A stretch of 64,000 nucleotides of DNA from an uncultured Alphaproteobacteria bacterium (lineage in GTDB: Bacteria; Pseudomonadota; Alphaproteobacteria; Rhizobiales; CAWCWK01). The notes beneath the pieces were generated by a model. That model saw only the letters and a program-made list of their open reading frames with translations. It did not search any database and had not been told where the DNA came from. The stretch is from contig CAWCWK010000004.1 in the NCBI GenBank assembly GCA_963799285.1, positions 270,309 through 334,308 of the forward strand, given 5' to 3'. Position numbers and translations under genes: made by a program. This document shows positions 39,267-55,351 of the stretch, piece after piece; position 1 is the first letter of the stretch; each line of letters opens with the position of its first letter.

Positions 39267-39285
39267 CGTCCGCTCTCCGCCCGCT

Positions 39286-39966: not shown

Positions 39967-39983
39967 GAACGAAATCGTCGTTC
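39967..39983. promoter_or_regulatory. Inverted repeat GAACGA-AATCG-TCGTTC in the marR-enamidase divergent region
   Basis: It uses the same AACGA/TCGTT words as the other sites but in everted order with a 5-nt spacer. It lies 115 nt upstream of the marR start chosen here. Confidence 0.3.
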
Positions 39984-40096
39984 AACACGCGGTTCCACCG
40001 TCGGGCAGCACATTCGGTAGCCGGCGTCGACCCGCGCCGGAGCCCGCGGCGCATAGCCGTGGTCGAACCCGGACCTTCATATTGATGCACTGCCGA

Positions 40097-40120
40097 AATT
40101 CGTTATCATGCTAACGAATT
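40097..40120. promoter_or_regulatory. Perfect 24-bp operator-like palindrome AATTCGTTA-TCATGC-TAACGAATT directly upstream of the enamidase RBS
   Basis: 9-bp perfect arms were read directly. It ends 3 nt before GGGGAGG and 18 nt before the ATG at 40139. Confidence 0.6.
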
Positions 40121-40138
40121 ATTGGGGAGGTCGAAACG

Positions 40139-41615: not shown

Positions 41616-42341
41616 ATGACTTCCGCCATTCTTCCTATCCTCGACCCTGGTCGCGCGGACGCGTCGACCGATCCGGCGGTCTGGGTCGCCGGCGTCTTGC
41701 GCGATCGTATCGTCAAGGGATCCTACCCGTCGGGATCGCGGATCGTGGAGCGAACCGTGTCCGCCGAGCTTGCGGTGTCGCGGACGCCCGTGCGCGAGGC
41801 TCTCAAGTTGCTTCACGCCGATGGCCTCGTCAGGATCTCGCGGCACAAGGGCGCCCACGTCCTCCCATACGATGCGGACGAGGCCCTCGCCCTCTTCGAG
41901 GTCCTCGCGGCGCTGGAGGGCATGGCTGCGGAACGGCTTGCGAGCACAATAGATGATGGGGCGTTTACCGCTCTGGAAAGTCTGCACGCCCGGATGATGA
42001 ACCGCTACGAGGCTGGCGATCTGGAGGGCTATTTCGACAGCAATACCGAGATTCATGATCGGATCGTCGAAGGGTGCGCAAATCCCATCCTCATCGATAC
42101 CTATGGCCGGCTCATCGCGCGCGCCCGACGTGGCCGATATCTCGCGATCATGGACCCGCGCCGGCTGGAGGAGGCCGTCGCGGAGCATGAAGGCCTGATG
42201 GCTGCGCTGCGCCGGCGGCATCCGGGGGATGCAGCCGGCATCTGGCGCCGGCACCTGCTACATTCGGGCGAGACGGTCGCCAAGGCCATCAGCGCGAGGG
42301 CCGTTAGTCCGACGGCCACCCAGTCGGGGCACGCGAGCTGA
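41616..42341 (+). CDS. GntR-family (FadR/FCD subfamily) transcriptional regulator
   Basis: ERTVSAELAVSRTPVREALKLLHADGLVRISRHKGAHV is the winged helix-turn-helix. An all-helical FCD-like C-domain follows. Confidence 0.85.
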   Translation: MTSAILPILDPGRADASTDPAVWVAGVLRDRIVKGSYPSGSRIVERTVSAELAVSRTPVREALKLLHADGLVRISRHKGAHVLPYDADEALALFEVLAALEGMAAERLASTIDDGAFTALESLHARMMNRYEAGDLEGYFDSNTEIHDRIVEGCANPILIDTYGRLIARARRGRYLAIMDPRRLEEAVAEHEGLMAALRRRHPGDAAGIWRRHLLHSGETVAKAISARAVSPTATQSGHAS

Positions 42342-42713
42342 GGCGAGGACGCCGAAAGTCCTTTGCCGCCGCGCGGGTCCATGGGGCTCGGCCACGCGAC
42401 GCGCATCCGCGATTAGGTGTCCATGTCCACGCGGCCCGACCGTCGGTCAGGTTGCCGGCCGAACTGGAGTGGCCGACCATGCCCATACCGGCGATGACGG
42501 GCCGAAGATGAGGCGCCTGCGTGTACCAGTCGTCCTGCGTGCGGGCTTGAGCGCGAGCCTTGATGCGATCCTCCGGATCCCTTCGTCCCGCCCAATATCG
42601 ATATCGGCGTCGAATCGGACCCCCGGCTTCCCTCGTCAGCAGCGCCACGTTCCGAAGGCGCAGGCTCATCACGGCATCCTGATCTGACAATGGATGCGGC
42701 AGACCGCGCCATC

Positions 42714-42753
42714 AATTGCTCAAATATTCATCGATCCGAAGATATGAGCAATT
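42714..42753. promoter_or_regulatory. 9-bp perfect inverted repeat AATTGCTCA-N22-TGAGCAATT upstream of the ABC/hydantoinase operon
   Basis: Read directly. It sits in a locally AT-richer stretch 128-167 nt upstream of the binding-protein start. A separate 12-bp palindrome ATGGCATGCCAT lies at 42804-42815. Confidence 0.35.
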
Positions 42754-42880
42754 TAACGCCATGTCGGACTTGCGCGACGCCGTCCCCTTCGCTCTAGATC
42801 AAATGGCATGCCATTCGCAAACCGGCGGACGACCGGTGATTGGATCGCAATTTCCAACGCTACCGAAAGGCGAAAACGTT

Positions 42881-43951
42881 ATGACTCACCACGACTTACC
42901 GGGTTCGATCTCAGCCAGTATCGGACGCCGGACGCTTCTGAAGACGGCTGGCGCCTTTGCTATCGGCACGCTGGCGTCGCCCGCCATCCTGCGCGCGCAG
43001 ACGACCGAGATCGTCGTCGGCTGCGCCGGCTCGCACACCGCCTGGATGGAGGCGATCGTGGCGCCCCACATGAAGGCGGCGATCGGCGCGGACATTCTCT
43101 TCGAGGGCACCAAGTCTTCGGTGAACCTCGAGAAGATGTCGTCCAACAAGGATGACCCCTACCTCTCGGTCGTACAGATGGACGATCCGGTCATGATCCA
43201 GGCGGTGGAGGCCGACCTCCTGACGCCGATCGTGCCGGACGCGGTGCCGAACATGACGGATCTACGCGACGGCGCCGTCCACATGGACGGGATGTGGTGC
43301 AACTACGTCCAGCCCTGGGCGGGTATCGCCTATAACACGGATGCGAAGGGGGGCGTCTCGTCCTGGGCGGAGCTGTGGGATCCGGCCAACCAAGGCCAGA
43401 TCATCATCATCCCGTCGCTGCAGAACACGGAAGGGATGTGGACGCTCTTCGCCGCCGCCATGCTGGGCACGGGCAAGCCCTTCGCGGAAGCCCAATACGA
43501 GATCGACGCCGCCTTCGCCAAGCTGGAAGAGCTGAAGCCCAACCTGTTGTCGGTCTACACGACGATGAGCCAGGCGTTCAACCTGCTCGAACAGGGCGAG
43601 ATCGCCATGCTGTCGGGCAACTTCTCGTCCTACACCCTGCCGCGCAAGGCCGAGGGGGTGCCGGTCGAACTGGCCGCGCCGAGCGAGGGCATCTTCGCGA
43701 TGCCGTCAGGCATTTGCCTCGTCAAGGGCGGCCCCAACCCGGAGCTCGCGGCAGCCTATGTCAACGAGATGCTGGGGCCGAAGCTTCAGGCGGAGATCGC
43801 CGATTTCGCGACCTCGGTGCCGGCCAATACGACCGTCTCGGCCGGTGCCGTCATACCCGATGGCGTGCCGATCTATAGCCCGGACTGGGCCTTCGTCGCC
43901 GCGAACCGCCGCGCGTGGATCGACCGTTTCGACAAGCTGATGGCCCTCTAG
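42881..43951 (+). CDS. PotD/family-1 ABC substrate-binding protein with Tat-type signal
   Basis: I take the internal ATG at 42881 of ORF 42716..43951. The N-terminus is MTHHDLPGSISASIGRRTLLKTAGAFAIGTLASPAILRA. Confidence 0.8.
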   Translation: MTHHDLPGSISASIGRRTLLKTAGAFAIGTLASPAILRAQTTEIVVGCAGSHTAWMEAIVAPHMKAAIGADILFEGTKSSVNLEKMSSNKDDPYLSVVQMDDPVMIQAVEADLLTPIVPDAVPNMTDLRDGAVHMDGMWCNYVQPWAGIAYNTDAKGGVSSWAELWDPANQGQIIIIPSLQNTEGMWTLFAAAMLGTGKPFAEAQYEIDAAFAKLEELKPNLLSVYTTMSQAFNLLEQGEIAMLSGNFSSYTLPRKAEGVPVELAAPSEGIFAMPSGICLVKGGPNPELAAAYVNEMLGPKLQAEIADFATSVPANTTVSAGAVIPDGVPIYSPDWAFVAANRRAWIDRFDKLMAL

Positions 43952-43965
43952 GGCTCGAGGCGGAC

Positions 43966-45045
43966 ATGATGCACGAAGCGGCGCCTCAGAGCCGGAACTA
44001 TCTCGAGGTCTGGGGCGTCGCGAAGGCTTTCAAGGGCACGCGCGTCATGTCCGGTCTGAACGCCCGGGTGGACCGGGGCGAGCTCGTATCGCTCCTCGGT
44101 CCGTCCGGTTGCGGCAAGAGCACGCTTCTGCGGATCATCGCAGGGCTTCTGACGGCCGACGAGGGCTCCGTCATCGTCGGCGGACGCGAGATCACGCATC
44201 TGCCCGCGCATCGCCGCAACATCTCCGTCGTCTTCCAGAACTACGCGCTGTTCCCTCACCTGACCGTCGCGGAGAACGTCGCCTTCGGCCTGCGCGCACG
44301 AGGCACGGCGAAGGCCGCCACGGCCGCACTGGTGGCGGACGCACTCGCACTGGTGCGAATGAGCGAGTATGCGGACCGTTCGATCGCGGCCCTGTCGGGC
44401 GGGCAGCAGCAGCGGGTGGCGGTGGCCCGCGCGCTCGTTGTGAACCCCGACCTCCTCCTTCTCGACGAACCCTTCTCGGCACTGGACCGCAAGCTGCGCG
44501 AGACGATGCAGGTCGAGTTGAAGGCTCTCCTTCGCGATCGCGGCATGACGGCGATATTCGTGACGCACGATCAGGAGGAGGCGATGGGCGTCTCCGATCG
44601 CATCGCGGTGATGAACGAGGGCCGGATCGAGCAATTCGCCGATCCGTCGACGCTCTACGCCCGCCCCGCCTCACCCTTCGTCATGGACTTCGTCGGCCTG
44701 TCCGCCCGGATGCGCGGCACGGTCGCGGCGTCCGACGGCGGCACGCTCACGATCGAGACCGCCTATGGGATGGTCCGCGCGCCGGGCGATTCGGCGCCCA
44801 GCGCCGAGGTCCAGGTCGGCATCCGGCCGGAGCTGATGTCCGTCGAGGGCGGCGACAACCAAATTCGCGTGACGCTGGACGACGTCGTGGTGCTCGGCTC
44901 CAAGACCGTGCTGCACGGACGAGCCGCGCCCGGCGAGCGCATCATCTGCGAGCTCCCCGGCATCCGCACCGGCTTTCTCCGTGGCGAGACCGTGTCGCTC
45001 GGATGGGCGGTCGAGGACACGCTCGTCTACGAGGTCGCGGCATGA
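43966..45045 (+). CDS. ABC transporter ATP-binding protein (PotA type)
   Basis: GAGG lies 5 nt upstream of ATG 43966. Motifs: GPSGCGKSTLL, FQNYALFPHLTV, LSGGQQQRVAVARAL and LLLDEPFSALD. Confidence 0.9.
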   Translation: MMHEAAPQSRNYLEVWGVAKAFKGTRVMSGLNARVDRGELVSLLGPSGCGKSTLLRIIAGLLTADEGSVIVGGREITHLPAHRRNISVVFQNYALFPHLTVAENVAFGLRARGTAKAATAALVADALALVRMSEYADRSIAALSGGQQQRVAVARALVVNPDLLLLDEPFSALDRKLRETMQVELKALLRDRGMTAIFVTHDQEEAMGVSDRIAVMNEGRIEQFADPSTLYARPASPFVMDFVGLSARMRGTVAASDGGTLTIETAYGMVRAPGDSAPSAEVQVGIRPELMSVEGGDNQIRVTLDDVVVLGSKTVLHGRAAPGERIICELPGIRTGFLRGETVSLGWAVEDTLVYEVAA

Positions 45046-45872
45046 GCGCCCCGATCAGCCGTGTCGGCCATCTCGCGATCCCGGGTCTGGCCTATCTGGC
45101 CGTCGTCTATGCGCTGCCGCTGGTGCTGCTGCTCGCCAAATCCGTCCGGACGGCTGACGGACTGTCCTTCGGCGAATATGCCGACTTCTTCGGCGACGAG
45201 TTCAACCGCCGGGTGCTGTGGCGCACGCTGCGCGTCGCCGGGCTGACGACCGTGCTCGCGCTTCTCATCGCCTACCCGACGGCCTTTGCCATGAACCGCG
45301 CCAGGGGTGTCTGGCTGACCGTCTTCCTGGTCGCTCTGGTCCTGCCGATGTCGCTCGGCGTCGTCGTGAAGGCCTTCGCCTGGTCGATCCTCTTTCGCGC
45401 AAACGGGTTCCTCAACACGACCTTGCAGTGGATCGGGCTGACGGACGCGCCCGTGCGCATGCTCTTCACCGAGACGGCGCTGATCATCGGCGCGGCCAAC
45501 GTCTTCCTGCCTTTCATGGTGCTGCCGATCTACGCCGTCATTCGCCAGTTCGACGGGCGCCTGCCGGAGGCGGCCGCCTCGCTCGGCGCCGGGCCTTTCT
45601 TTCGCTTCTTCCACGTCACCCTGCCGCTCACCCTGCCGGGCGTGGTGGCGGGCTCGGCCTTCACCTTCTCGATGGCGATCTCGATGTACGTCATCCCGTC
45701 GCTGATCGTCGGCGAGCGCCAGCAGACGATGTCCATGCTGATCGCCCGCAGCTTCCTCTACCTGCGCAACGAACCGCTCGGCTCGACCATCTCCGCCGTG
45801 CTGCTGGCCATCGCGATCTTCGTGGTCGTCTTCTCCAGCTGGCTCGCCCGGCGGCTGGGGGCGCGCGCGTGA
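45042..45872 (+). CDS. ABC transporter permease (PotB-like)
   Basis: ATGA overlap with the ATPase stop. The N-terminus is MSAPISRVGHLAIPGLAYLAVVYALPLVLLL. The EAA loop is EAAASLGAGPFFRFFHVTLP. Confidence 0.85.
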   Translation: MSAPISRVGHLAIPGLAYLAVVYALPLVLLLAKSVRTADGLSFGEYADFFGDEFNRRVLWRTLRVAGLTTVLALLIAYPTAFAMNRARGVWLTVFLVALVLPMSLGVVVKAFAWSILFRANGFLNTTLQWIGLTDAPVRMLFTETALIIGAANVFLPFMVLPIYAVIRQFDGRLPEAAASLGAGPFFRFFHVTLPLTLPGVVAGSAFTFSMAISMYVIPSLIVGERQQTMSMLIARSFLYLRNEPLGSTISAVLLAIAIFVVVFSSWLARRLGARA

Positions 45873-46669
45873 CCCGCGTCGATCGCATCGCGCAAGGCCT
45901 GAGCTGGGCGGTCGGCCTCATCTGCATCGTCTTCCTGATGCTGCCGATCATCATCACGGTCGCCGCGTCATTCACCTCGTCGGCCGTCTACACCCTGCCG
46001 CCGCCCGAATGGTCGTTGCGCTGGTATGCCTCGCTTGAGCGCCGATCCGGCCTTTGGGACGCAGTCGTCCTCTCGCTCAATCTCGCGGCCGTCTCCACGG
46101 CGATCGCGCTCGTTCTCGGCACGCTCACCTCGATCGCCGTCGCCCGGGGCGACTTCCGAGGCCGTGACGCGATCGCGACCTTCGCCGTCTCGCCGCTGAT
46201 GATGCCCGGGCTCGTGGTCGGCGTCGCACTTCTCCAGTTCTTTCGCGAGATCGGATTGCGCGACGCCTATTGGTCGCTCTTGCTCGGCCATATCGTGATC
46301 ACGCTGCCCTTCGCGATGCGAACGCTGCTCGCCTCGATGTCGGCCTTCGACTTCGCGCTCGTCGATGCCGCCCGCACGCTGGGCCTGAGCTACCCCAAGG
46401 CGATCCTCAAGGTGCTCGTGCCCAACCTCGCGCCGTCCTACCTGACCGCCGGCCTCTTCGCCTTCCTCGCGTCGATGGACAACTATCCGATCTCGATCTT
46501 CCTGACGGATGCGCGCAACAAGACGCTGCCGATCAAGATGCTGCAATATCTCGAGGAACAGCCGGACCCTTCGCTCGCCGCCATCTCGTCGGGCCTCATC
46601 CTCCTCGCCGTCATCGTCCTCGCCTTCGGCGCACGGACCGTCGGTCTCAACCGGATGATCCAGGGATGA
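45869..46669 (+). CDS. ABC transporter permease (PotC-like)
   Basis: GTGA overlap with the previous stop. The N-terminus is VTRVDRIAQGLSWAVGLICIVFLMLPIIITV. The EAA loop is DAARTLGLSYPKAILKVLVP. Confidence 0.8.
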   Translation: MTRVDRIAQGLSWAVGLICIVFLMLPIIITVAASFTSSAVYTLPPPEWSLRWYASLERRSGLWDAVVLSLNLAAVSTAIALVLGTLTSIAVARGDFRGRDAIATFAVSPLMMPGLVVGVALLQFFREIGLRDAYWSLLLGHIVITLPFAMRTLLASMSAFDFALVDAARTLGLSYPKAILKVLVPNLAPSYLTAGLFAFLASMDNYPISIFLTDARNKTLPIKMLQYLEEQPDPSLAAISSGLILLAVIVLAFGARTVGLNRMIQG

Positions 46670-46736
46670 GCCGACGCGACCCCAGGATCTATCCGGACGT
46701 TGACCTGGAGCCATGCCGGTCGGAGGGGCGCAGCCG

Positions 46737-47486
46737 ATGATGCGCATCCTTCTCGTCAATCCGAACATGACCCGAGCCATGACCGACACGATGGTCGAGA
46801 TCGCCGGGCCGCTGGCGGGCGACCGTGCCGAGATTGTGCCCGTGACGGCGACGCGAGGGTTTCCCTACATCGCATCGCGCGCGGAGGCGACGATCGCCGG
46901 CGCCATCGCGATCGAGACCATCGCCGACAATCTGCGCGGCATCGACGCCGTCGTGATCGCCGCCTTCGGCGACCCCGGGCTCGCAGGCGCGCGCGAGCTC
47001 TTCGACGTGCCGGTGGTGGGGCTCGCGGAGGCGTCGGCGATGTCGGCCGCGATGCTGGGCGAACGCTTCTCGGTCGTCACCTTCTCGCCGCTCATGATGC
47101 GGTGGTACGCGGCCTCGATCATCGATACCGGCCTCGGTGCCCGCTTCACGGGGGTGCGCACGCCGCCATCGCATATCGCCGATGTCGGCCGCGCCGCGAA
47201 CGACTTGCGCGACGAGCTCGTCGCGCTCGCCAGGCGCGCCGTCAGGGAGGACGGCGCGGACGTCGTCATCCTCGGCGGGGCGCCGCTGGCGGGCCTTGCG
47301 CCCCAGATCGCGCACGAGGTCCCGGCCGCCGTTATCGATCCGATTGCGGCGGCGACCGCGCAGGCCCTCGCGCTCGCATCGCTCGGCATCCGTCTGGGCG
47401 GTCGGGCGGGGAAGCCAGCGCCGAAGGCGTCGATGGGTCTGTCCGACCGGCTCTCGGCAATCATCGCGGCGGAGGGCGGGGAATGA
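46737..47486 (+). CDS. Asp/Glu/hydantoin-racemase-family protein lacking both catalytic cysteines
   Basis: GGAGGGG lies ~9 nt upstream of ATG 46737. The N-terminus is MMRILLVNPNMT. The positions of the two catalytic Cys motifs read IAAFGDPGL and ILGGAPLAG, versus IAC(W/F)GDPGL and LLGCAGM in hydantoin racemases as I recall them. Confidence 0.75.
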   Translation: MMRILLVNPNMTRAMTDTMVEIAGPLAGDRAEIVPVTATRGFPYIASRAEATIAGAIAIETIADNLRGIDAVVIAAFGDPGLAGARELFDVPVVGLAEASAMSAAMLGERFSVVTFSPLMMRWYAASIIDTGLGARFTGVRTPPSHIADVGRAANDLRDELVALARRAVREDGADVVILGGAPLAGLAPQIAHEVPAAVIDPIAAATAQALALASLGIRLGGRAGKPAPKASMGLSDRLSAIIAAEGGE

Positions 47487-48880
47487 GCTTCGATACGATC
47501 ATTACGGGTGCGCGTGTGGTGTCACCTGGTGGCGTCGCGGTCTGCGATATCGGCATCACCGGCGGGGTCATCACGGCGCTGGCCGCCCGTCTCGAAGGTG
47601 CGGGCGAGGTCATAGCGGCTGACGGCCTGATCGCGATGCCGGGCGGGATCGACAGCCACGTGCACATCTCGCAGCCCTCCGGTCCCGGCATCGAGATGGC
47701 GGACGATTTCGCCTCCGCGACCCGCTCCGCCGTGGCGGGCGGCAACACGACCGTGCTGCCCTTCTGCCTGCCCGAGGACGGCCAGAGCCTGCGCGAAGCC
47801 GTCGCAGCCTATCACGCGAAGGCGGAAGGCCAATGCCATTGCGACGTCTCCTTCCATCTGATCGTGGCGGATACGGGCCCTGCGACGCTGGGACAGGACC
47901 TGCCGGCGCTCATCAATGCCGGCCACACGAGCTTCAAGGTCTTCATGACCTATAGGGGGCTGGCGCTCTCCGACCGGCAGATCCTCGACGTCATGGCCGT
48001 GGCGCGCGAGCATGGCGCCCTCGTCATGGTGCACGCCGAGAACGAGGACGCGATCGAGTTCCTGCGCGACAAGGCCGATCGCGAGGGGCGGACCGAGCCC
48101 CACCACCACGCGCGCTCGCGCCCCGTCGCCGTGGAGCGCGAGGCGACGCACCGCGCGATCTCGCTGGCCGAGGTCGCCGACGTACCGCTGACCATCGTGC
48201 ATGTCTCCAACGGCGAGGCATTGGACGAGATCCGTCGTGGGCGCCGGCGCGGGGCGAAGGTCTTCGCCGAGACCTGCCCGCAATACATCACGCTGACGGC
48301 GGACGATCTCGACCGCGCGGGCTTCGAGGGTGCAAAGTATGTCTGCTCGCCCCCGCCGCGCACGACGGCCGATTGGGACGCGATCTGGAACGGCATCACC
48401 GGCGGCGATTTCGAGCTCTTCTCGTCCGATCACTGCCCGTTCCGCTTCGCCGATCCCGCCGGCAAAGACGCGCCCGGGGCGCGACAGTCCTTCCGCAACA
48501 TCCCGAACGGCATCCCGGGTGTCGAGACGCGTCTGCCCATCCTCTTCTCGGAGGGGGTAACCAAGGGGCGGATCTCGCTGGAGACGTTCGCTGCGATCAC
48601 GGCGACCAACCACGCCCGGCTCTACGGCCTGACGTCCAAGGGCGCGATCATGGTGGGCAAGGACGCCGACATCGTCCTATGGGACCAGAGACTGACGCGT
48701 CCGATCCGGCAGGCGGACCTCCACCACGGCTCGGACTATACGCCCTGGGAGGGTTTCGAGGTCACCGGCTGGCCGGTGCGCACGATCCTCCGCGGCCGGA
48801 CCATCATGCGCGACGGCGAGCCGGAGGGCGATCCGACTGGCGGCCACATCGCGCGCGCGGCGCCGGAGTTGCGGCCATGA
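47483..48880 (+). CDS. D-hydantoinase / dihydropyrimidinase / imidase-type cyclic amidohydrolase
   Basis: ATGA overlap with the previous stop. The full metal-ligand set is present: GGIDSHVH, SFKVFMTY (Lys to be carboxylated), VMVHAEN, IVHVS and SSDHCP. Length is 465 aa. Confidence 0.9.
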   Translation: MSFDTIITGARVVSPGGVAVCDIGITGGVITALAARLEGAGEVIAADGLIAMPGGIDSHVHISQPSGPGIEMADDFASATRSAVAGGNTTVLPFCLPEDGQSLREAVAAYHAKAEGQCHCDVSFHLIVADTGPATLGQDLPALINAGHTSFKVFMTYRGLALSDRQILDVMAVAREHGALVMVHAENEDAIEFLRDKADREGRTEPHHHARSRPVAVEREATHRAISLAEVADVPLTIVHVSNGEALDEIRRGRRRGAKVFAETCPQYITLTADDLDRAGFEGAKYVCSPPPRTTADWDAIWNGITGGDFELFSSDHCPFRFADPAGKDAPGARQSFRNIPNGIPGVETRLPILFSEGVTKGRISLETFAAITATNHARLYGLTSKGAIMVGKDADIVLWDQRLTRPIRQADLHHGSDYTPWEGFEVTGWPVRTILRGRTIMRDGEPEGDPTGGHIARAAPELRP

Positions 48881-49629
48881 TCCATGCGCCCCTAGACGGC
48901 GCCCGCGTGGGCATGCTGACACCGTCGTCCAATACCGTGCTGGAACCTTACACGGCCGCTATGTTTGCGCCATTGGGCGAGGAGGCGAGCGCGCATTTCG
49001 CCAGGTTCCGCGTCGTCGAGATCTCGCTGTCGGAAGCCTCGCAAACCCAGTTCGATCTCGCGCCTGTCCTTGAGGCGGCGACCCGGCTCGCGGAACTGCG
49101 ACCGCGCCTCATCGCCTGGAACGGCACGTCCGCATCCTGGCTGGGGCTCGACAAGGACCGCGCGCTCTGCGCCGCGATCGAGGCCGAGACCGGCATCCGC
49201 GCGACCTCTACCGTGCTGGGCTTCGAGCGCGTCCTTCGCGCGATGAAGGCCAGGCGGATCGGCCTGGTGACGCCCTATATCGCGGACGTCCAGGACCGCA
49301 TCGCCGCGAACTTCGCGGCCCAGGGCATCGAGGTCGTCGCCAGCGAGCGGCTCGACGTCAGGGATAACTACGCCTTCGCCACCACCCCGCCCGAACAGGT
49401 GGGCGAGATGGCACGATGCGCCGCGAAGGACCGTCCCGACGCCCTCGTCATCATGTGCACCAATTTCCGCGGCGCTCCGCAAGCGGCCCGGATCGAGGCC
49501 GAGACGGGCGTGCCCGTGCTCGATTCCGTGGCGGTCACCGCCGCGCACTGTCTGCGCGAGATGGGCTGCGACCCCTCTCGCGTGACCGGCTGGGGCTCCG
49601 TGTTCCAGCGTTTCGCCGACCCTTCCTGA
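48877..49629 (+). CDS. Maleate-isomerase / arylmalonate-decarboxylase-like member of the Asp/Glu racemase superfamily, with only the second catalytic Cys
   Basis: ATGA overlap with the previous stop. Blocks are VGMLTPSSNTVLEP, then WNGTSAS where two-Cys enzymes carry the first Cys, then VIMCTNFRG retaining the second. Confidence 0.7.
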   Translation: MIHAPLDGARVGMLTPSSNTVLEPYTAAMFAPLGEEASAHFARFRVVEISLSEASQTQFDLAPVLEAATRLAELRPRLIAWNGTSASWLGLDKDRALCAAIEAETGIRATSTVLGFERVLRAMKARRIGLVTPYIADVQDRIAANFAAQGIEVVASERLDVRDNYAFATTPPEQVGEMARCAAKDRPDALVIMCTNFRGAPQAARIEAETGVPVLDSVAVTAAHCLREMGCDPSRVTGWGSVFQRFADPS

Positions 49630-49676
49630 CCCCCCCAAACGGGCCGGAAGAGCCCGCCATCGACAGAGAGACCATC

Positions 49677-50711
49677 ATGACCCTGAAGACCACACTCTCC
49701 GCAGTCCTTCTCGCCACCACGGTCCTCGCCGGTGCGGCAAGCGCCGAGACATATCGCGTCATGGGCCAGCCCGCCGCGACCGGGCTCATCCAGAAGAATG
49801 TCGAGCAGCCCTTCTTCGAGAGCTTCGCCGAGAAGACCGGCCTCGACATGACGGCCGACTACCAGCCCGTCGACGTGACCGGCATCAAGGACACCGAGCA
49901 GCTGCGCATCCTCAAGGACGGGCTGTTCGACATCGTCTCGCTGCGCCTCAGCCAGGTCTCGCGCGACGAGCCGACCATTCTCGGCCTCGACCTCGTCGGC
50001 CTGAACCCCGACTACGCGACCGGCAAGGTAACGGTCGAGAAGTTCGCGCCCATCGTCGACGAGGCGCTGCAAGACAAGTTCAACACCAAGCTGCTCGGCG
50101 TCTGGCCATTCGGGCCGCAGGTTCTCTTCTGCAAGCCGGAGATCGCTTCGCTGTCCGACCTCACGGGGCTCAAGGTGCGCGTATACGATCAGAATCTGGC
50201 CAACTTCATCTCGCTCGTCGGCGGCACGCCCGTGCCGCTCTCCTTCCCCGAAGTCCAGCAATCGCTGGCGCGCGGCGTGGTCGATTGCGCTGTGACCGGT
50301 CCGTCCTCGGCCAACTCTGCCGGATGGCCCGAGGTCACGACCCACATGCTCCCGATCGCCTTCCAGCTCGCGATGAACGGCTACGGGATGAATCTCGATA
50401 AGTGGAACGCGCTGTCGCCCGAGGAGCAGGAGAAGGTGCAGACCGCCTTCGACGGCCTGATCGAGGAGATCTGGACCTATTCCGAGGAGCTCTTCGTCGA
50501 CGCCGTGTCCTGCAACACCGGTGGCGAGGCCTGCGAGACGGGCACGAAATACGACAACGTCCTCGTCAGCCCGACCGAGGCCGACACCGCCCTCATCGGC
50601 ACCGCCGTCACGGACGTCTCCTTCCCTGCCTGGAAGGAGACCTGCGATGCGGTCAACGAGGGCTGCTCGGCAAAGTGGCTGGAGACCGTAGGAACGGCCT
50701 ACGACTTCTGA
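49677..50711 (+). CDS. TRAP transporter substrate-binding protein (DctP-like)
   Basis: I take the internal ATG at 49677 of ORF 49416..50711. The signal peptide is MTLKTTLSAVLLATTVLAGAASA. TRAP Q and M genes follow. Confidence 0.75.
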   Translation: MTLKTTLSAVLLATTVLAGAASAETYRVMGQPAATGLIQKNVEQPFFESFAEKTGLDMTADYQPVDVTGIKDTEQLRILKDGLFDIVSLRLSQVSRDEPTILGLDLVGLNPDYATGKVTVEKFAPIVDEALQDKFNTKLLGVWPFGPQVLFCKPEIASLSDLTGLKVRVYDQNLANFISLVGGTPVPLSFPEVQQSLARGVVDCAVTGPSSANSAGWPEVTTHMLPIAFQLAMNGYGMNLDKWNALSPEEQEKVQTAFDGLIEEIWTYSEELFVDAVSCNTGGEACETGTKYDNVLVSPTEADTALIGTAVTDVSFPAWKETCDAVNEGCSAKWLETVGTAYDF

Positions 50712-50720
50712 TCGCGCAAC

Positions 50721-50746
50721 GTCGCGCCCCGGTATCGGGGCGCGAC
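50721..50746 (+). terminator. Strong intercistronic hairpin GTCGCGCCCCG-GTAT-CGGGGCGCGAC between TRAP binding-protein and membrane genes
   Basis: An 11-bp perfect GC-rich stem with a 4-nt loop was read directly, 10 nt after the stop. No U-tract follows. It is likely a partial terminator or mRNA stabiliser. Confidence 0.45.
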
Positions 50747-50765
50747 AAGACCAAGGGGCCTCCCA

Positions 50766-51323
50766 GTGATGAATGCCGTCGCCACATGGATTTCGCGCCT
50801 CTTCGGGGCCGCCTTGCTCTTTCTCTCCGGCTTCGTCGCGCTGGAGACATTGCTTCGCAAGGTCTTCAACACGTCCCTGCAGGGCGCGGACGAGCTTGGC
50901 GGCTATGTTCTGGCCTTCGGTGCGTCCGCTGCTTTCGTGGTGGCCTTGATCGACCGCGCGCATGTCAGGATCGACGTGCTGCATCAGCGCCTGCCCGTCG
51001 CCCCGCGCGCCTGGATCGACTTCGCTGCCGTGCTGTCGCTTGGCGTCTTGGGCCTCTTCTTCCTCTATATCGGCTGGTTCGTGGTCACCGACACGATTGC
51101 CTACGGGTCGACCGCGGCCACGCCCTGGCGGACGCCGCTCATCTATCCGCAAGGCGCGTGGTATGCGGGCCTGGCGGTCTTCGCGATCGCCTCGTTCTGG
51201 CTATCGGCGCGCGCGTTGCGGCTCGTCGTGACCGGACGGATCGATCAGGTGGCCCGCGAGTTCGCGCCCTGCAGCGCGGCCGAGGAACTGGCCGAGGAAC
51301 TCGATCGGCTCTCCCGCCGATGA
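50766..51323 (+). CDS. TRAP transporter small permease (DctQ-like)
   Basis: It has four hydrophobic segments and contains GADELGGYVLAFGASAAFVVAL. It sits between the P and M genes. The start is GTG 50766 or ATG 50769. Confidence 0.8.
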   Translation: MMNAVATWISRLFGAALLFLSGFVALETLLRKVFNTSLQGADELGGYVLAFGASAAFVVALIDRAHVRIDVLHQRLPVAPRAWIDFAAVLSLGVLGLFFLYIGWFVVTDTIAYGSTAATPWRTPLIYPQGAWYAGLAVFAIASFWLSARALRLVVTGRIDQVAREFAPCSAAEELAEELDRLSRR

Positions 51324-51351
51324 CCCGCACCATGCCCGAAAGCGCCCGCAC

Positions 51352-52665
51352 ATGAGCATGATCGACGTCCTTGTCGGCTTCACGACGATGATGGGCCTCT
51401 TGATGCTCGGCATGCCCGTCGCCGTCGTCATGGTGGTCATGGGCGTGGCCGGGGGCATGATCCTCTATGGGCCTGTCCTGCTGAAATCCATGGGGCCGGT
51501 CCTCTGGGGCGTCTCCAACGAGAACGTGCTGACGGCCATTCCGCTCTTCATCCTGCTCGGCGAATTGCTTCTGCGCTCGGGTCTGGCGGACCGGATGTAT
51601 GCGACGCTGTCCCTCTGGCTCGGGCGCCTGCCCGGCGGACTGCTGCACACCAATATCGGGGCCTGCTCGCTCTTCGCCGCAACGTCAGGGTCCTCGGTTG
51701 CGACGGCTGCGACCGTCGGGACAGTGGCGCTGCCGGCGCTGAACGAGCGCGGCTACGACCCGGCCCGCTCGCTTGGCTCCCTAGCGGCCGGCGGGACGTT
51801 GGGCATCCTCATCCCGCCCTCCGTCAACCTGCTGATCTACGGCTCGCTCGCCTCAGTCTCGGTCGGCCAGCTCTTCGTCGCTGGCATCGTGCCGGGCATC
51901 CTTCTGACATTGACCTTCATGGCCTTTGTGGTCGCCGAGAGCCTGTGGCGCCGCTCGCGCGGTTTGGCCGACGCATCGCGCGTCGAGGATGCCTTGCCCT
52001 TGTTCGAGCGCGTGCGAGCGCTCATCCATCTCGTGCCGGCGGCGGTCGTCTTTCTCGTCGTGATGGGCTCGATCTATCTGGGCATCGCGACGCCGACCGA
52101 AAGCGCGGCGCTCGCCGTGCTCGTCGCGCTCGTCTTCGTGTGGCGCGAGGGCAGGCTGTCTTTCGCCTTCCTCGACATATGCTTTCGGCAGACCGCGAAG
52201 ACGACCGGAATGATCCTCCTCATCATAGCGGCCGCCTTCACGCTGAACGTGACGCTGGCACTGGGTGGCATCACCGGCGTCATCTCCGATTGGGTGGACG
52301 GGCTGGGTCTCGGGCCCACGGGGCTCCTCTTCGCGCTGATGCTTTTCTATCTGATCCTCGGAATGTTCATGGACGTCCTGTCGATGCAGGTGCTGACGAT
52401 CCCGATCGTCGTCCCCATCGTGATAGCCGCCGGCATCGATCCCGTCTGGTTCGGCATCTTCGTCGTGCTGATGAGCGAACTGGGTATGATAACGCCACCC
52501 GTAGGCATGAACCTCTATGTCGTGCAGGGCGTACGCACCGACGGCGGGCCGTTCACCGACGTCGTGCGTGGCGCCATCCCCTATGCAGTGCTGATGCTGC
52601 TCTTCACCGTCCTCCTCATCTTCGTACCCGGGGTTGCGATGTGGCTGCCACGGAGCCTGGGATGA
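51352..52665 (+). CDS. TRAP transporter large permease (DctM-like)
   Basis: It is a 437-aa polytopic protein. Typical DctM blocks are present (LFILLGELLLRSGLADRM, GSSVATAATVG, GTLGILIPPS). Confidence 0.9.
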   Translation: MSMIDVLVGFTTMMGLLMLGMPVAVVMVVMGVAGGMILYGPVLLKSMGPVLWGVSNENVLTAIPLFILLGELLLRSGLADRMYATLSLWLGRLPGGLLHTNIGACSLFAATSGSSVATAATVGTVALPALNERGYDPARSLGSLAAGGTLGILIPPSVNLLIYGSLASVSVGQLFVAGIVPGILLTLTFMAFVVAESLWRRSRGLADASRVEDALPLFERVRALIHLVPAAVVFLVVMGSIYLGIATPTESAALAVLVALVFVWREGRLSFAFLDICFRQTAKTTGMILLIIAAAFTLNVTLALGGITGVISDWVDGLGLGPTGLLFALMLFYLILGMFMDVLSMQVLTIPIVVPIVIAAGIDPVWFGIFVVLMSELGMITPPVGMNLYVVQGVRTDGGPFTDVVRGAIPYAVLMLLFTVLLIFVPGVAMWLPRSLG

Positions 52666-54005
52666 TCTGGCAACACGACGCTACCGCACTGCTGGAGTCA
52701 TTCGCGGCAGGTCGGGCGACGCCGAGCGAGGCGGTCGAGGCCGTTCTCCAACGCATCGCGGCCACCGATCCGGTCGTGAACGCCTACTCCGCCGTGTCCG
52801 ACACCCTCCGGATGGAGGCCGATGCCTCGACCGCCCGTTGGTCCGGCGGTACGCCATCCGGCCCGCTCGACGGCCTGCCGCTGGTGATCAAGGACAATCT
52901 CGTCAGTGCGGGCCTGCCGGCGTCGTGGGGCAATGCCGCCCTCGCCAAGCGCGTGCCCGCGCGAGACGAAAGTCCCGTGGCGGCGTTACGTGAGGCTGGC
53001 GCCTTAGTGATCGGCAAGGGCAACACGCCCGAGTTCGCGGTCGAAGGCTTTACCGACAACCTGACCTTCGGTGCGACCCGCAATCCCTTCGATGCGGCTC
53101 TGACACCGGGCGGCTCCTCTGGCGGCGTCGTCTCGGCAATTGCCTGCGGCTCGGCCTTTGCAGGCCTCGGGACGGATGGCGGCGGCTCGATCCGCCGCCC
53201 GGCCGGCTATACGGGCCTCGTCGGTCTGAAGCCCGGGATCGGCCGTGTCCCGCGCGGTGGCGGCCTGCCGCAAGTGCTGCTCGATTTCGAGGTCGTGGGA
53301 CCGATCGCGCGCTCGCTTCGCGATGTTCGCCTGCTGGACGAGGTGCTGTCCGGCACGCCGGCAGAGTCTCGCCTGGCCGCACCTTCGCGCATCCTCGCCG
53401 TTCCTACGCTCGGAGACGCGCCGTGCGATCCAGCCATCCTCGCCGCGTTCGAGGACGTCCTGGGGCGCCTCCTCGAGCGGGGTCACAGGGTCGAGATCGG
53501 CGGGCTGCCACATGACTTGACCGATCTGAACGCAGGCTGGTCCCGAATCGGACAGATCGGCCTCGCTGCCTATTTCGCCCGCGATCAGGAGGTGGCCGAA
53601 GCGGCCGCACCTCGATATCGCGAGATGGCGAAGGCCGGTTCCGAAGCCTCCGCCACCGAGTTCCAGGCCGTGCTGGACGCCGTCTACGACCTGCGCCATT
53701 CGGCGCGCGATCTCTGGGGGCACGACGCGATCCTGATGCCGACCTCAGCCGCCCAACCATGGGCCGCGCGCGAAAGCCACCCGCGTGAGATCGCCGGACG
53801 CGCCGTCGGCCCTCGTGGCCATGCCGTCTATACGGGCTGGGTGAATGCGGCGGGCCTGCCGGCGCTCGCCTTCCCGGCCCCCCTGTCCAAAGGGCTCCCG
53901 ATCGGAATCCAGTTGGTGGGGCCGATGGGATCGGAGGGGCGGCTCATGGATATTGCCGAGCCGATACTCGCCCCGTTCCGCTGGCCCGACCTTACGCTAG
54001 GTTGA
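52662..54005 (+). CDS. Amidase-signature (GatA-like) amidase
   Basis: ATGA overlap with the dctM stop. Blocks are LDGLPLVIKDNL and GGSSGGVVSAIACGSAFAGLGTDGGGSIRRPA. Confidence 0.9.
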   Translation: MIWQHDATALLESFAAGRATPSEAVEAVLQRIAATDPVVNAYSAVSDTLRMEADASTARWSGGTPSGPLDGLPLVIKDNLVSAGLPASWGNAALAKRVPARDESPVAALREAGALVIGKGNTPEFAVEGFTDNLTFGATRNPFDAALTPGGSSGGVVSAIACGSAFAGLGTDGGGSIRRPAGYTGLVGLKPGIGRVPRGGGLPQVLLDFEVVGPIARSLRDVRLLDEVLSGTPAESRLAAPSRILAVPTLGDAPCDPAILAAFEDVLGRLLERGHRVEIGGLPHDLTDLNAGWSRIGQIGLAAYFARDQEVAEAAAPRYREMAKAGSEASATEFQAVLDAVYDLRHSARDLWGHDAILMPTSAAQPWAARESHPREIAGRAVGPRGHAVYTGWVNAAGLPALAFPAPLSKGLPIGIQLVGPMGSEGRLMDIAEPILAPFRWPDLTLG

Positions 54006-54711
54006 CCGAGACGTCGCCGAGCCCTTCGATCCACCCCTCGATCCGCGTGCCCGGCCCGAACCAGGGAAGGCCGCACAGCGAACCGGTGATGACGATCTGC
54101 CCCGGCCGCACGCCGCCGCAATGATCGCCGAGGTGCCGGAGAAGGAGATCGAGATTGGCGAGCGCGGAACCGCCCGGCACTGTCGCGGGACCATCGAGAA
54201 CATAGCTGTCATCGGCCGTCAGTCGGGCCGGCACCTCGCCGAAATCGGCACCGTCCCAGTCCGTCGGCCCCTCTCCGATGACGATCCCGGCGTTCATCTG
54301 AAGATCAGCGAACTTGAGCGACGGGTTCTCGGCGGCCCGGCCCGCCAGGCGGGTATCGACGAGTTCCAGAACCGTGCGGGGGCGGAGATAGCGCTGCGGT
54401 TCGTCGGGGAGGCCGTCTCCGGGCAGTGCCGTGAGGACCTCGAAGCCGACCTCCAGCTCGATCCCTAACCGGTCGGCCACTGTGCGAACGCCGCGATTCT
54501 CCGTACCGTAGCGGGCGGGTATGGGGGCGAGGATGGGCAGCCCGTCGGGCACCGCGCTCACCTTGAAGCCCGCCACAGGCCCCAGCGCCGTGCAGACCGT
54601 CGTCTGTATCGACAGGATGTCGCGGCGCCTGAGCGCTGCGATGGGCGACGCGATCCTCACGCCGGTGCGATGCGCGCCCAGCAGCCTTTGCGCCAGCATG
54701 TCAGGCGTCAC
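53992..54711 (-). CDS. 2-keto-4-pentenoate hydratase / MhpD-HpcG-like hydratase-decarboxylase family protein
   Basis: GFKVSAVPDG...IELEVGFEV...PGQIVITGSL.G. The 3' end overlaps the convergent amidase by 14 nt. Confidence 0.55.
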   Translation of the reverse strand: MTPDMLAQRLLGAHRTGVRIASPIAALRRRDILSIQTTVCTALGPVAGFKVSAVPDGLPILAPIPARYGTENRGVRTVADRLGIELEVGFEVLTALPGDGLPDEPQRYLRPRTVLELVDTRLAGRAAENPSLKFADLQMNAGIVIGEGPTDWDGADFGEVPARLTADDSYVLDGPATVPGGSALANLDLLLRHLGDHCGGVRPGQIVITGSLCGLPWFGPGTRIEGWIEGLGDVSVNLA

Positions 54712-54715
54712 CGCG

Positions 54716-55351
54716 TCATCCTTCCAGAAGCGCCACGACCTCGTCGGCCGCGCAGATGATCGGATTTAGGAGGGGGAGGGGACTTCGCGACCGCAGCCGC
54801 TCGGCGGCCTCGCCCAACGGACCGCCGCCGATGATGATGCGTTCCGCGCCCTTCGCCCGAGCGTCCTCGATCGCACCCAACAGGGCTGCGTCTAGGGCGT
54901 CGTCGTTTGCCATGAGGGCCAGGGGGGCGCCATCAGAGACGAAGCATCCGATATAGGGCGCCGCACCGGCATGCCGCCGCATCAGATCGTCGATTGCGAT
55001 GCGCAGGCCGGGCGTCGTGGTGGCCACGGCGAAGGGTACACATTCTTTGGCAGCGGAACGCGCAGAAGCCGCCCCAATGCCGATGACGGGACAAGTCAGC
55101 CTACGCGCGAGGGCCTCGGCTCCCGGATCGCCGAAGGCCGCCACGATGACGGCGGCCACATCTCGCGGAACGCTCATTGCGGCGACCTGGCGGCCCGCTT
55201 CGGCAAGCGCATCGGCTGTGACGATCATCCCGGGACCGTGAGGCATGGTCCATCCCTGCGGCGCGGCGCCCAGCGCGCGCGACGCAATCGCGCACATCCG
55301 CTTGGTCGTGGACGCATTGCTATTGGGATTGACGAGAAGGACCGCGTTCAA
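54716..55351 (-). CDS. Asp/Glu/hydantoin-racemase-family protein lacking both catalytic cysteines (paralogue 2)
   Basis: The N-terminus is MNAVLLVNPNSNAS. The motif positions read VAAFGDPGA and IIGGGPLGE. Confidence 0.7.
   Translation of the reverse strand: MNAVLLVNPNSNASTTKRMCAIASRALGAAPQGWTMPHGPGMIVTADALAEAGRQVAAMSVPRDVAAVIVAAFGDPGAEALARRLTCPVIGIGAASARSAAKECVPFAVATTTPGLRIAIDDLMRRHAGAAPYIGCFVSDGAPLALMANDDALDAALLGAIEDARAKGAERIIIGGGPLGEAAERLRSRSPLPLLNPIICAADEVVALLEG

Follow-up and report, generated by a model that had tools for sequence, protein, structure and literature searches.

Which ring compound does a bacterium degrade when it couples a hydantoinase homologue to racemase-like proteins that have lost their catalytic cysteines? 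This question is raised by a gene cluster of an uncultured Alphaproteobacteria bacterium (contig CAWCWK010000004.1), which we analyzed within a 64-kb window, i.e., the whole stretch of DNA under study, with a GC content of ~67%; coding frames were chosen by third-position GC and starts were fixed afterwards. On the forward strand lie, in this order, genes for a GntR regulator with an FCD domain, an ABC importer, a hydantoin/allantoin-racemase-family protein (HyuRac1), a D-hydantoinase/dihydropyrimidinase-family amidohydrolase (HydA), an Asp/Glu-racemase-superfamily protein (AMDl), a TRAP transporter (DctPQM) and an amidase-signature amidase, and on the reverse strand the genes for a FAH-fold protein (FAHl) and a second racemase-like protein (Rac2) converge on the end of the operon (Table 1). 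This content and order, with its two complete uptake systems, one ABC (binding protein, ATPase and two permeases) and one TRAP (DctP, DctQ and DctM), and its convergent hydratase-type and racemase-like genes, had been proposed in an earlier reading of the sequence (hereafter, the original prediction), and the Pfam and NCBIfam domains and coordinates agree with it. From the gene content, conservation, catalytic residues and operator motif that we observed, we lean, by a modest degree, towards an inducible operon, repressed by the GntR/FCD protein, that takes up and hydrolyzes a cyclic amide with five or six ring members, chiral and with a carboxylate, either a ureide or an imide.

The evidence for ring opening comes from HydA. 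Its scores of 701.6 bits against PRK13404 (cut-off 647) and 484.6 bits against TIGR02033 (cut-off 393.25) place it in the D-hydantoinase/dihydropyrimidinase family, and its best PDB match is 1nfg (E 1.5e-117). In this family, an HxH pair, a carbamylated lysine, two histidines and an aspartate hold a binuclear metal center, and a tyrosine, a serine and an asparagine bind the ring. HydA has, as read from the sequence and conserved in relatives, H59/H61, K152, Y157, H184, H240, S289, D316 and N342, which would supply both the metal ligands and the ring-binding residues of a D-hydantoinase or dihydropyrimidinase. These scores and residues bear out the proposal of a catabolic cluster for a cyclic amide, opened by a hydantoinase-family enzyme. 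The pocket loops were considered as a discriminator of the substrate and rejected, since, in a comparison of AMDl-linked HydA proteins with paralogues from another gene context, the loops beside the metal ligands are essentially the same across the PRK13404 subfamily. Because HydA passes the D-hydantoinase and dihydropyrimidinase thresholds and its loops match those of these paralogues, its sequence cannot tell an imide from a ureide substrate. The paralogues themselves (~60% identity), on plasmids of Rhodobacter, Rhizobium and Aureimonas (loci L014, L016 and L017), belong to a different conserved module, in which an FCD regulator, an amino-acid-type ABC transporter and a “cysteine desulfurase-like protein” precede hydA; in Acidisoma (L015), the desulfurase-like gene is missing and hydA adjoins an ABC transporter of the amino-acid type. 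The module has the look of a further uncharacterized pathway, which may act on a thio-substituted ring.

A second hydrolytic step is suggested by the last gene of the operon. As the original prediction held, an amidase-signature enzyme stands in place of the classical carbamoylase: the protein matches Pfam Amidase, its Lys-cisSer-Ser triad is intact (K77, GGSSGG and S176), and neither the cluster nor the open reading frames (ORFs) scanned in the window yielded a carbamoylase of the nitrilase or M20 type. Two ways of assigning it more narrowly failed: no equivalog score for a specific subfamily (allophanate hydrolase, AtzE, IaaH, GatA and others) reaches its cut-off, and the PDB matches, i.e., GatA, urethanases, aryl acylamidase, and biuret and allophanate hydrolases, do not separate amide from ureido cleavage.

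The nature of the ligand can be approached through the TRAP transporter, which has all three components. In alignment to 4pe3 and 4n4u, the motif GLKVRV of the binding protein DctP supplies the conserved arginine of G-x-K-x-R that holds the ligand carboxylate, which supports a carboxylate-bearing ligand. Among the best, though distant, PDB matches of DctP are 2pfy and 2pfz, which we take to be DctP6 and DctP7 and treat as a lead only. In Bordetella (B. pertussis), DctP6 and DctP7 bind a carboxylated lactam, 5-oxoproline (PMC13274462).

AMDl carries a single catalytic Cys, residue 200, in the motif IMCTN. We compared it with the 12 AMDase criteria of Maimanakos et al. 2016 (Table 4 in PMC4996985). 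The G74 that replaces the first Cys and C188 have their equivalents in WNGTS and IMCTN, and the dioxyanion hole (T75, S76, Y126 and G189) is represented by T, S and Y, with Thr at the G189 position. The aryl pocket P14-P15 is lost, PSSN taking the place of PPAxG, and the NCBIfam AMDase model NF052327 gives 70.5 bits vs. a cut-off of 225. Given the changed pocket, the Thr and the low score, AMDl is not a true AMDase, and the original label of an AMDase-like gene holds only for part of the AMDase features; instead of an aryl group, the protein probably accommodates a second carboxylate. In the PDB, AMDl is closest to maleate isomerase 2xec (1.6e-16), ahead of AMDase 3dg9 (3.9e-10). Maleate isomerase uses two cysteines, the nucleophile Cys76 and Cys194 (Nocardia farcinica numbering), of which AMDl keeps the second only; the first is Gly in WNGTS, so that covalent maleate isomerization is unavailable to it. 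The best NCBIfam match is the EutA model TIGR02990, at 83.3 bits far under the cut-off of 318, and annotated eutA genes match AMDl at 33–38% identity over its C-terminal 60%. AMDl keeps the machinery by which the superfamily forms an enediolate beside a carboxylate, with one proton donor. The motifs PSSN, WNGTS, TPY and CTN are kept in nearly all AMDl relatives, TPY being unmatched in the Azospirillum protein, and thousands of relatives are present in databases.

The two racemase-like proteins depart further from their family. HyuRac1 and Rac2 both have the Asp_Glu_race fold of hydantoin and allantoin racemases (EC 5.1.99.5 and 5.1.99.3), and HyuRac1 matches 3qvk (7e-28) and 3qvj (1.1e-27) in the PDB; its longest ORF starts at 46713, and a conserved N terminus and a GGAGG Shine-Dalgarno sequence favor a start at 46737 or 46740. 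Where the wild-type Klebsiella pneumoniae allantoin racemase 3qvj reads IACFGDPG and LGCGGM, HyuRac1 aligns with IAAFGDPG and LGGAPL, and Rac2 has VAAFGDPG and IGGGPL, such that the Cys79/Cys184 pair (K. pneumoniae HpxA) is replaced by Ala and Gly in both proteins. The Ala/Gly pair is invariant in all HyuRac1 orthologues, out to Arthrobacter and Advenella at 39% identity, and in a representative-level search no other state was as frequent in the nearest clusters (73 of ~128 representative relatives, vs. 11 with Cys/Cys). Characterized members of the family rely on a 1,1-proton transfer between two cysteines, and a Thr/Cys pair is the one exception on record (PMC12661438). A Pseudomonas fluorescens protein deposited as allantoin racemase, 5lfd, aligns Gly (AGYGEHG) at the first Cys and keeps the second, which suggests that the loss of one Cys may be tolerated, although we could not reconcile this apparent Gly/Cys state with the two-Cys mechanism of the family. 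For the loss of both, we found no characterized precedent. The original label of racemase-like genes agrees with the family assignment, but with both catalytic cysteines absent HyuRac1 and Rac2 are not canonical racemases, and the chemistry cannot be that of the textbook hydantoin pathway.

A genome scan with AMDl yielded ten loci, to which annotated plasmids added further ones. The set HyuRac1-HydA-AMDl-DctPQM-amidase is kept at 65–89% protein identity in most of the close Rhodobacterales loci (L001 and L003–L009; the L005 contig ends after AMDl), FAHl is convergent in five of them (L003, L004 and L006–L008), and Rac2 is syntenic in L003 and L004. At a greater distance, the arrangements are MFS-AMDl-HydA-HyuRac-GntR/FCD in Advenella, MFS-GntR-racemase-hydA-AMDl in Arthrobacter, GntR and ABC-amidohydrolase-AMDl-hydA-amidase in Azospirillum, TRAP-aminohydrolase and AMDl-GntR-hydA in Paracoccus, and BtpA-TRAP-amidohydrolase-AMDl in Halovulum (L011). 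The triad of racemase-like protein, HydA and AMDl, with a GntR regulator and an anion transporter, thus recurs in Alphaproteobacteria, Betaproteobacteria and Actinomycetota. Transporters of AMDl clusters are without exception ABC or of an anion type (TRAP or MFS), and AMDl always lies beside a ring-opening hydrolase, which is HydA, another amidohydrolase or an M24 creatinase/ectoine-hydrolase-like enzyme. The distant arrangements therefore delimit an ancient unit of GntR regulator, anion transporter, ring-opening hydrolase and AMDl, usually accompanied by a Cys-less racemase homologue and sometimes by an amidase. In an alphaproteobacterial metagenome-assembled genome (L010, 5184–6380), an AMDl orthologue of 65% identity, with no HydA nearby, has in its vicinity a LysR gene, a TRAP transporter and a hydrolase of the M24 creatinase/prolidase type, in parallel to EutA-EutD of ectoine clusters.

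The regulatory region is conserved as well. The GntR/FCD regulator, with both domains recognized by Pfam, heads the cluster as originally predicted and is the presumed repressor of the operon; its orthologues (55–61% identity) head the cluster in L001 and L005–L009, the loci in which the upstream flank is covered. Two binding sites had been put forward. One, a 9-bp inverted repeat with perfect arms AATTGCTCA and TGAGCAATT inside 16-nt arms that are 88% complementary, is real, but it is absent from all orthologous loci (≤3 mismatches) and thus specific to the window. The other, given as 42804–42815, sits within a slightly longer element, the perfect 14-bp palindrome AATGGCATGCCATT. Its relaxed form ATGGNATNCCAT has 1 occurrence in the 64-kb window vs. 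0.016 expected and is found in 1–4 copies in each of the 8 close orthologous loci (L001 and L003–L009), in regulatory regions only, usually as two copies 143–144 bp apart, with an extra copy upstream of the GntR gene in L005, L006 and L009. The conserved operator candidate is therefore likely to be the AATGGCATGCCATT palindrome rather than the 9-bp repeat, and the winged-helix and FCD domains, together with a palindrome conserved in the target promoter, are those expected of a FadR-subfamily GntR repressor and its putative operator.

We further asked whether the genes could form one transcript. The statement in the original prediction that almost every junction from 43966 to 54005 is an ATGA/GTGA overlap is too strong, as 4-bp overlaps occur at five of the nine junctions (ATPase/permease 1, permease 1/permease 2, HyuRac1/HydA, HydA/AMDl and DctM/amidase), the remaining gaps being ~67 bp (43 bp from the longest HyuRac1 ORF), 47, 54 and 28 bp. 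Upstream of this interval, the binding-protein and ATPase genes are 14 bp apart, and the GntR gene lies 539 bp upstream of the binding-protein gene. A promoter and terminator scan of the region gave no terminator-like or promoter-like site above shuffle expectation, with a method ill-suited to high-GC Alphaproteobacteria, and no known RNA or riboswitch was found at E ≤ 0.1 in Rfam. With five translationally coupled junctions and no internal terminator signal above background, a single transcript across the operon is plausible. The only significant hairpin among the spacers is GC-rich and lies between dctP and dctQ, where a 71-nt stretch has a minimum free energy of −33.3 kcal/mol (z = −3.2; 1 of 200 shuffles folds as well). 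A hairpin after the binding-protein gene is a common arrangement, and this one may determine how much binding protein is made relative to the membrane subunits.

FAHl, a protein of 239 aa, escaped domain annotation: it has no Pfam match above threshold (PF01557, FAA_hydrolase, 11.6 bits vs. 23.9; MhpD E = 0.002). Its AF2 model (pLDDT 96.7) gives Foldseek TM scores of 0.77–0.83 to 1sv6, 2wqt, 2eb4, 5d2f and 8ih6, with E values down to 7e-15, and this predicted structure assigns it to the MhpD/HpcG/4-oxalocrotonate decarboxylase branch of the FAH superfamily. K50, E85, E87 and E116 are invariant, and, in a comparison made without superposition, their spacing is consistent with the metal-binding Glu-x-Glu…Glu triad and the catalytic lysine of the family, as in HpcG. 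The family counts ~200 clusters, mostly from Rhodobacterales, with no recorded Pfam domain on any listed member, and is a gap in Pfam coverage despite its confident MhpD/HpcG fold.

Based on these features, we infer the following substrates, step order and roles. An effector, either the substrate or its ring-opened product, would release the regulator from AATGGCATGCCATT, and the TRAP transporter would import the anionic heterocycle, the DctP arginine clamping its carboxylate. HydA, through its binuclear metal center with carbamylated lysine, would then open the ring to an N-carbamoyl acid or a half-amide, and the amidase would release ammonia from the terminal carbamoyl or amide group of this product, so that an amino-dicarboxylate or a dicarboxylate remains. 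AMDl may bind this C4/C5-dicarboxylate-like product and form an enediolate at the α-carbon, which its single Cys would reprotonate from one face, resulting in stereoinversion or editing, or else in a cofactor-free decarboxylation. The Cys-less HyuRac1 and Rac2 may bind the ring, without a two-thiol racemase mechanism, and FAHl could process a 2-oxo or enol-acid end product.

The uptake side of this scheme raises the possibility that two unrelated modules were joined by chance, with an ABC importer for an amine- or opine-like substrate that has lost its own enzymes and shares its promoter through an accident of deletion, the pathway proper consisting of the genes from HyuRac1 to the amidase alone. 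The ABC importer has all four components of a binding-protein-dependent system, and its binding protein is of the PotD/PhnS/opine class, usually binders of cationic amines: it gives weak NCBIfam matches to PhnS and PotD, and its PDB matches are 4edp, 3pu5 and binders of putrescine, mannopine and 2-AEP. In the close relatives L005, L007 and L008, the ABC module is missing, and Salipiger has it apart, with a regulator of its own (GntR-ABC-CE4-amidase-racemase), the hydA-AMDl-TRAP-amidase genes being placed behind a LysR gene. Where present in relatives, the module carries a PuuE-like CE4 hydrolase and in some of them a second amidase (L001 and L003) or a divergent TRZ/ATZ-type aminohydrolase (L006), i.e., hydrolases of its own, none of which is found in the operon of the window; the 539-bp spacer between the GntR and binding-protein genes holds no remnant of them, with no tblastn match to the relatives' aminohydrolase and no Pfam match for its ORFs. 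However, the ABC module of the relatives, where it occurs, is always flanked by the same GntR gene on one side and HyuRac1 on the other and follows the same operator palindromes, which argues for co-regulation and probably for related substrates, e.g., an amino-substituted ring precursor, and a chance union is in our view doubtful. The original idea of one operon with two uptake systems thus needs to be revised: the arrangement is specific to a lineage, and the ABC importer appears from the comparison to be an add-on derived from a second module.

Within our preferred reading of a carboxylated cyclic amide, a carboxyalkyl-hydantoin or dihydroorotate-type ureide comes close to an even chance of being the substrate, a cyclic imide falls a little short of that, and another ring amide would be a minor outcome. 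The family scores of HydA, the hydantoin-racemase ancestry of its partner, and the PuuE-like and TRZ/ATZ partners in relatives point to a ureide, and the lack of a carbamoylase, a fungal precedent, the affinity of AMDl to maleate isomerase and the FAH-fold enzyme point to an imide. Taken to its end, as in the original proposal of imide-to-half-amide-to-dicarboxylate logic, the imide route would have HydA act on a ring of the succinimide, glutarimide or maleimide type, with or without a carboxylate, as an imidase that yields a half-amide, the amidase as a half-amidase that yields a dicarboxylate, and AMDl and FAHl as enzymes processing an unsaturated dicarboxylate. Besides the absence of nitrilase-type and M20-type carbamoylases, this would agree with the typical action of amidase-signature enzymes on primary amides, the activity of D-hydantoinases on cyclic imides as well, the closeness of AMDl to maleate isomerase, the place of FAHl in the 2-oxo-enoate hydratase/decarboxylase branch, and the CE4/PuuE-type enzyme, of the family of the imidases BpIH and CIH, and second amidase in the relatives' ABC module. 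In Aspergillus nidulans, a CE4 imidase, HxnM, and an amidase-signature amidase, HxnN, hydrolyze a ring imide and then deamidate the product (PMC9304392). We nevertheless consider this route rather unlikely, as HydA passes curated dihydropyrimidinase and D-hydantoinase thresholds, its conserved partner is of the hydantoin/allantoin racemase subfamily, AMDl lacks the nucleophilic Cys required for maleate isomerization, the TRZ/ATZ aminohydrolases and PuuE-like enzymes of relatives suggest N-rich ureide-type rings, and ureido- or carbamate-cleaving amidase-signature enzymes (allophanate hydrolase, AtzE and urethanases) exist and are among the matches of the amidase; the proposed logic has gained a precedent, but its choice of imide over ureide goes beyond what the sequences can separate. 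A classical hydantoin or reductive pyrimidine route, with HyuRac1 racemizing, HydA hydrolyzing, a carbamoylase encoded elsewhere and the other genes as bystanders, would account for the equivalog-level D-hydantoinase score and for the translational coupling of a racemase-family gene to HydA; it is very improbable, however, given that HyuRac1 is devoid of both cysteines of the two-thiol mechanism (PMC12661438), that there is no dihydropyrimidine dehydrogenase, β-ureidopropionase, carbamoylase or NCS1-type hydantoin permease, and that the TRAP arginine implies an anionic ligand. In addition, AMDl, TRAP and amidase are not bystanders, as they are conserved with HydA in the close Rhodobacterales loci and the AMDl-HydA pair extends across phyla. 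An ectoine-like route, in which a carboxylated cyclic amidine or urea analogue of ectoine is degraded with AMDl in the role of EutA and HydA in place of the M24 ectoine hydrolase, draws on EutA as the best NCBIfam match of AMDl and the similarity of eutA genes, on the combination of a GntR-type regulator with TRAP uptake in a marine member of the Rhodobacterales, and on the pairing of AMDl with an M24 creatinase/ectoine-hydrolase-like gene and a TRAP transporter in L010. It too has little chance of being correct, with the EutA score far below its cut-off, no EutB, EutC or EutE (DoeB) homologues in the cluster, and a HydA chemistry directed at C(=O)-N bonds in ureide and imide rings rather than at amidines.

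Several points weigh against the cyclic-amide operon that we favor. Both racemase-like proteins are without known catalytic residues, which leaves their role unexplained. The PDB matches of DctP are weak (E ~1e-12), so that the inference of a carboxylate rests on one conserved motif. All 26 NCBIfam matches of the amidase are below cut-off (best PRK06169, 250.9 vs. 506) and the Azospirillum amidase is only 30% identical, for which reason the amidase step may be independently recruited or generic, and no amidase lies near the minimal Arthrobacter and Advenella clusters. Upstream of FAHl and Rac2, the operator motif is missing. Finally, full-text literature searches returned no published characterization of the gene combination, no experiment on any cluster member and no identified substrate.

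Table 1. Features of the operon, its regulatory region and convergent genes, followed by those of the upstream cluster (positions within the 64-kb window)
Feature	Position	Strand	Evidence and remarks
GntR regulator with FCD ligand-binding domain, 241 aa	41616-42341	+	Pfam GntR 56.8 bits, FCD 83.2 bits
Inverted repeat	42714-42753		perfect 9-bp arms within 16-nt arms
Operator candidate, perfect 14-bp palindrome	42802-42815		66 bp upstream of binding-protein start codon
ABC substrate-binding protein, PotD/PhnS/opine class	42881-43951	+	Pfam SBP_bac_6, SBP_bac_8; twin-arginine-like signal peptide
ABC ATPase with TOBE_2 domain	43966-45045	+	Pfam ABC_tran 132.6 bits, TOBE_2
ABC permease 1	45042-45872	+	Pfam BPD_transp_1; 4-bp ATGA overlap with ATPase gene
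ABC permease 2	45869-46669	+	Pfam BPD_transp_1; 4-bp GTGA overlap with permease 1
HyuRac1, hydantoin/allantoin-racemase family	46737-47486	+	Pfam Asp_Glu_race (PF01177) 143 bits
HydA, D-hydantoinase/dihydropyrimidinase-family cyclic amidohydrolase	47483-48880	+	complete predicted catalytic set
AMDl, Asp/Glu-racemase superfamily	48877-49629	+	Pfam Amdase 73.9 bits
DctP, TRAP substrate-binding protein	49677-50711	+	Pfam DctP 68 bits; NCBIfam TRAP_S1 80.3 bits vs. cut-off 50
GC-rich 11-bp hairpin, dctP-dctQ spacer	50721-50746	+	no T tract
DctQ, TRAP small membrane subunit	50766-51323	+	Pfam DctQ 61.9 bits
DctM, TRAP large membrane subunit	51352-52665	+	Pfam DctM 299.7 bits
Amidase-signature amidase	52662-54005	+	Pfam Amidase (PF01425) 257 bits; 4-bp ATGA overlap with dctM
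FAHl, FAH fold, predicted MhpD/HpcG/4-oxalocrotonate-decarboxylase branch	53992-54711	-	3′ end overlaps amidase gene by 14 bp
Rac2, second Cys-less hydantoin-racemase-family protein	54716-55351	-	PF01177 92.5 bits; 4 bp upstream of FAHl
Two PF06684 “AA_synth” proteins	32125-33287	-	ABM monooxygenase-like protein nearby
Fused 2Fe-2S/MoCo-binding hydroxylase	35680-38466	-	
FAD subunit of hydroxylase	38421-39266	-	
MarR regulator	39406-39966	-	
397-aa amidohydrolase, “enamidase” of the original prediction	40139-41332	+	weak, non-specific NCBIfam matches only

Genes related to the ABC module are also found elsewhere in the window. Two adjacent same-strand ORFs, 13485–14090 and 14148–14540, correspond to the N- and C-terminal parts of one SBP_bac_6/8 protein, suggesting a split or frameshifted binding-protein gene; it belongs to a second PotD-class ABC system with SIS-domain proteins on its flanks. 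Two PuuE-like CE4 “polysaccharide deacetylase” genes of allantoinase/imidase type, 9360–10346 (+) and 20290–21213 (−), have 48% and 57% identity to the CE4 gene of the relatives' ABC module. One window CE4 gene adjoins a 545-aa amidohydrolase gene (10343–11980, −), and the other a BtpA-family gene (21032–22033) and an isochorismatase gene (22421–23056); a BtpA gene also precedes the TRAP-amidohydrolase-AMDl cluster of Halovulum.

Immediately upstream of the operon, a cluster on mixed strands (29428–41332) includes, besides the genes listed in Table 1, three sizeable proteins without a Pfam match (29428–30876, 33287–34186 and 34179–35687) and looks like a separate, uncharacterized pathway for the hydroxylation of an N-heterocycle. 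The original prediction of a broader N-heterocycle island, drawn from the adjacency of the “enamidase,” is not borne out, since the Mo-hydroxylase and “enamidase” genes accompany the operon in no related locus and the idea therefore rests only on the window's own content, which includes several further amide and heterocycle hydrolase genes. An oxidative pyrimidine route, from Mo-hydroxylase through barbiturate and ureidomalonate to an AMDase-like decarboxylation, was likewise rejected, as the Mo-hydroxylase genes are syntenic in no relative and there is no barbiturase homologue. Apparently unrelated are a β-helix/RTX-repeat protein (3443–6028), an alginate-lyase/RTX protein (7463–8794), a patatin-like phospholipase and a PLD-domain protein just beyond Rac2 (55868–58638), and a CheR-PAS-HWE histidine kinase cut off by the end of the window (61404–63995).

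Identification of the substrate would give a function to a gene set of many marine Rhodobacterales, which are major consumers of dissolved organic nitrogen, and to two large, uncharacterized Asp/Glu racemase clades, i.e., the Cys-less hydantoin-racemase homologues and the single-Cys AMDase/maleate-isomerase hybrids. A bolder proposal, which we put forward tentatively and think less probable than not by some way, is that the triad of Cys-less racemase-like protein, HydA and AMDl is an ancient cross-phylum module for a natural carboxylated N-heterocycle that is widespread but unrecognized, and that its two Asp/Glu-racemase-superfamily proteins have exchanged the two-thiol mechanism for new cofactor-free chemistry; candidates would be a single-base stereoinversion, decarboxylation or tautomerization of the ring or of a ring-opened ureido- or amido-dicarboxylate. 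If so, the locus would reveal an undescribed catabolic pathway, at least two new enzyme activities and a new FAH subfamily. Industry makes chiral amino acids and pregabalin intermediates with hydantoinases and imidases, and biocatalysis could take an interest in a natural hydantoinase system whose stereo-editing partners are non-canonical and in which an amidase-signature enzyme serves as carbamoylase or half-amidase.

How, then, does this operon compare with known systems? With the hyu clusters of Arthrobacter aurescens, Agrobacterium and Sinorhizobium (HyuA/HyuE, HyuH, HyuC and HyuP), it shares a racemase-family gene coupled to a D-hydantoinase-family gene, a dedicated transporter and a local regulator, but it has no nitrilase or M20 carbamoylase, its racemase homologue is without both cysteines, and it adds a single-Cys AMDl, TRAP (and ABC) transport instead of an NCS1 permease, and an amidase-signature enzyme. 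Ergothioneine catabolism offers a similar succession, in which the ring of a carboxyalkyl-hydantoin is opened by a hydantoinase homologue before another hydrolase sets the amino acid free (ErtD and ErtE, the hydantoin-5-propionate and N-carbamoyl-L-glutamate amidohydrolases); however, the ErtD models, with cut-offs of 650 and 600, give HydA 231 and 177 bits, and no homologues of ErtA-C or ErtE were noted. The Blastobacter cyclic-imide pathway, with imidase and half-amidase, is known by enzymology only. It and the Aspergillus Hxn pathway follow the same logic of ring hydrolysis and then half-amide deamidation, with an amidase-signature second hydrolase, whereas here a metal-dependent hydantoinase homologue rather than a CE4 enzyme would open the ring, CE4 being confined to the relatives' ABC module, and the racemase-superfamily and FAH-fold genes have no counterpart there. 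BpIH was considered as an example of a hydantoinase-type imidase and set aside, as it is a CE4/PuuE-type enzyme. AMDase (EC 4.1.1.76) resembles AMDl in the equivalents of G74-T75-S76, Y126 and C188 and in having a single proton-donor Cys, and its genes, too, often adjoin TRAP or ABC transporters; what AMDase-type enzymes do in nature has yet to be settled (PMC4996985). AMDl differs in PSSN for P14-P15, Thr for G189 and a score below the NCBIfam cut-off. With maleate isomerase (NicE/MaiA; 2xec and 4fq7), AMDl has in common the N-terminal carboxylate-binding motif PSSN, TPY and the C-terminal Cys, but not the first, nucleophilic Cys. Ectoine clusters (EutA, TRAP UehABC, EutD/DoeA and a GntR-type regulator) likewise combine an AMDase-family protein, a TRAP transporter and the hydrolysis of a carboxylated N-heterocycle in marine Rhodobacterales, with an M24 hydrolase where this operon has an amidohydrolase, and with EutB, EutC and EutE, which are absent here. 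Taken together, a hydantoinase- or imidase-type operon for cyclic-amide catabolism is already known in kind, and what is unusual here, and conserved, are the Cys-less racemase homologues, the single-Cys AMDase/maleate-isomerase hybrid and the MhpD-like family invisible to Pfam, which make the locus a good target for pathway discovery.

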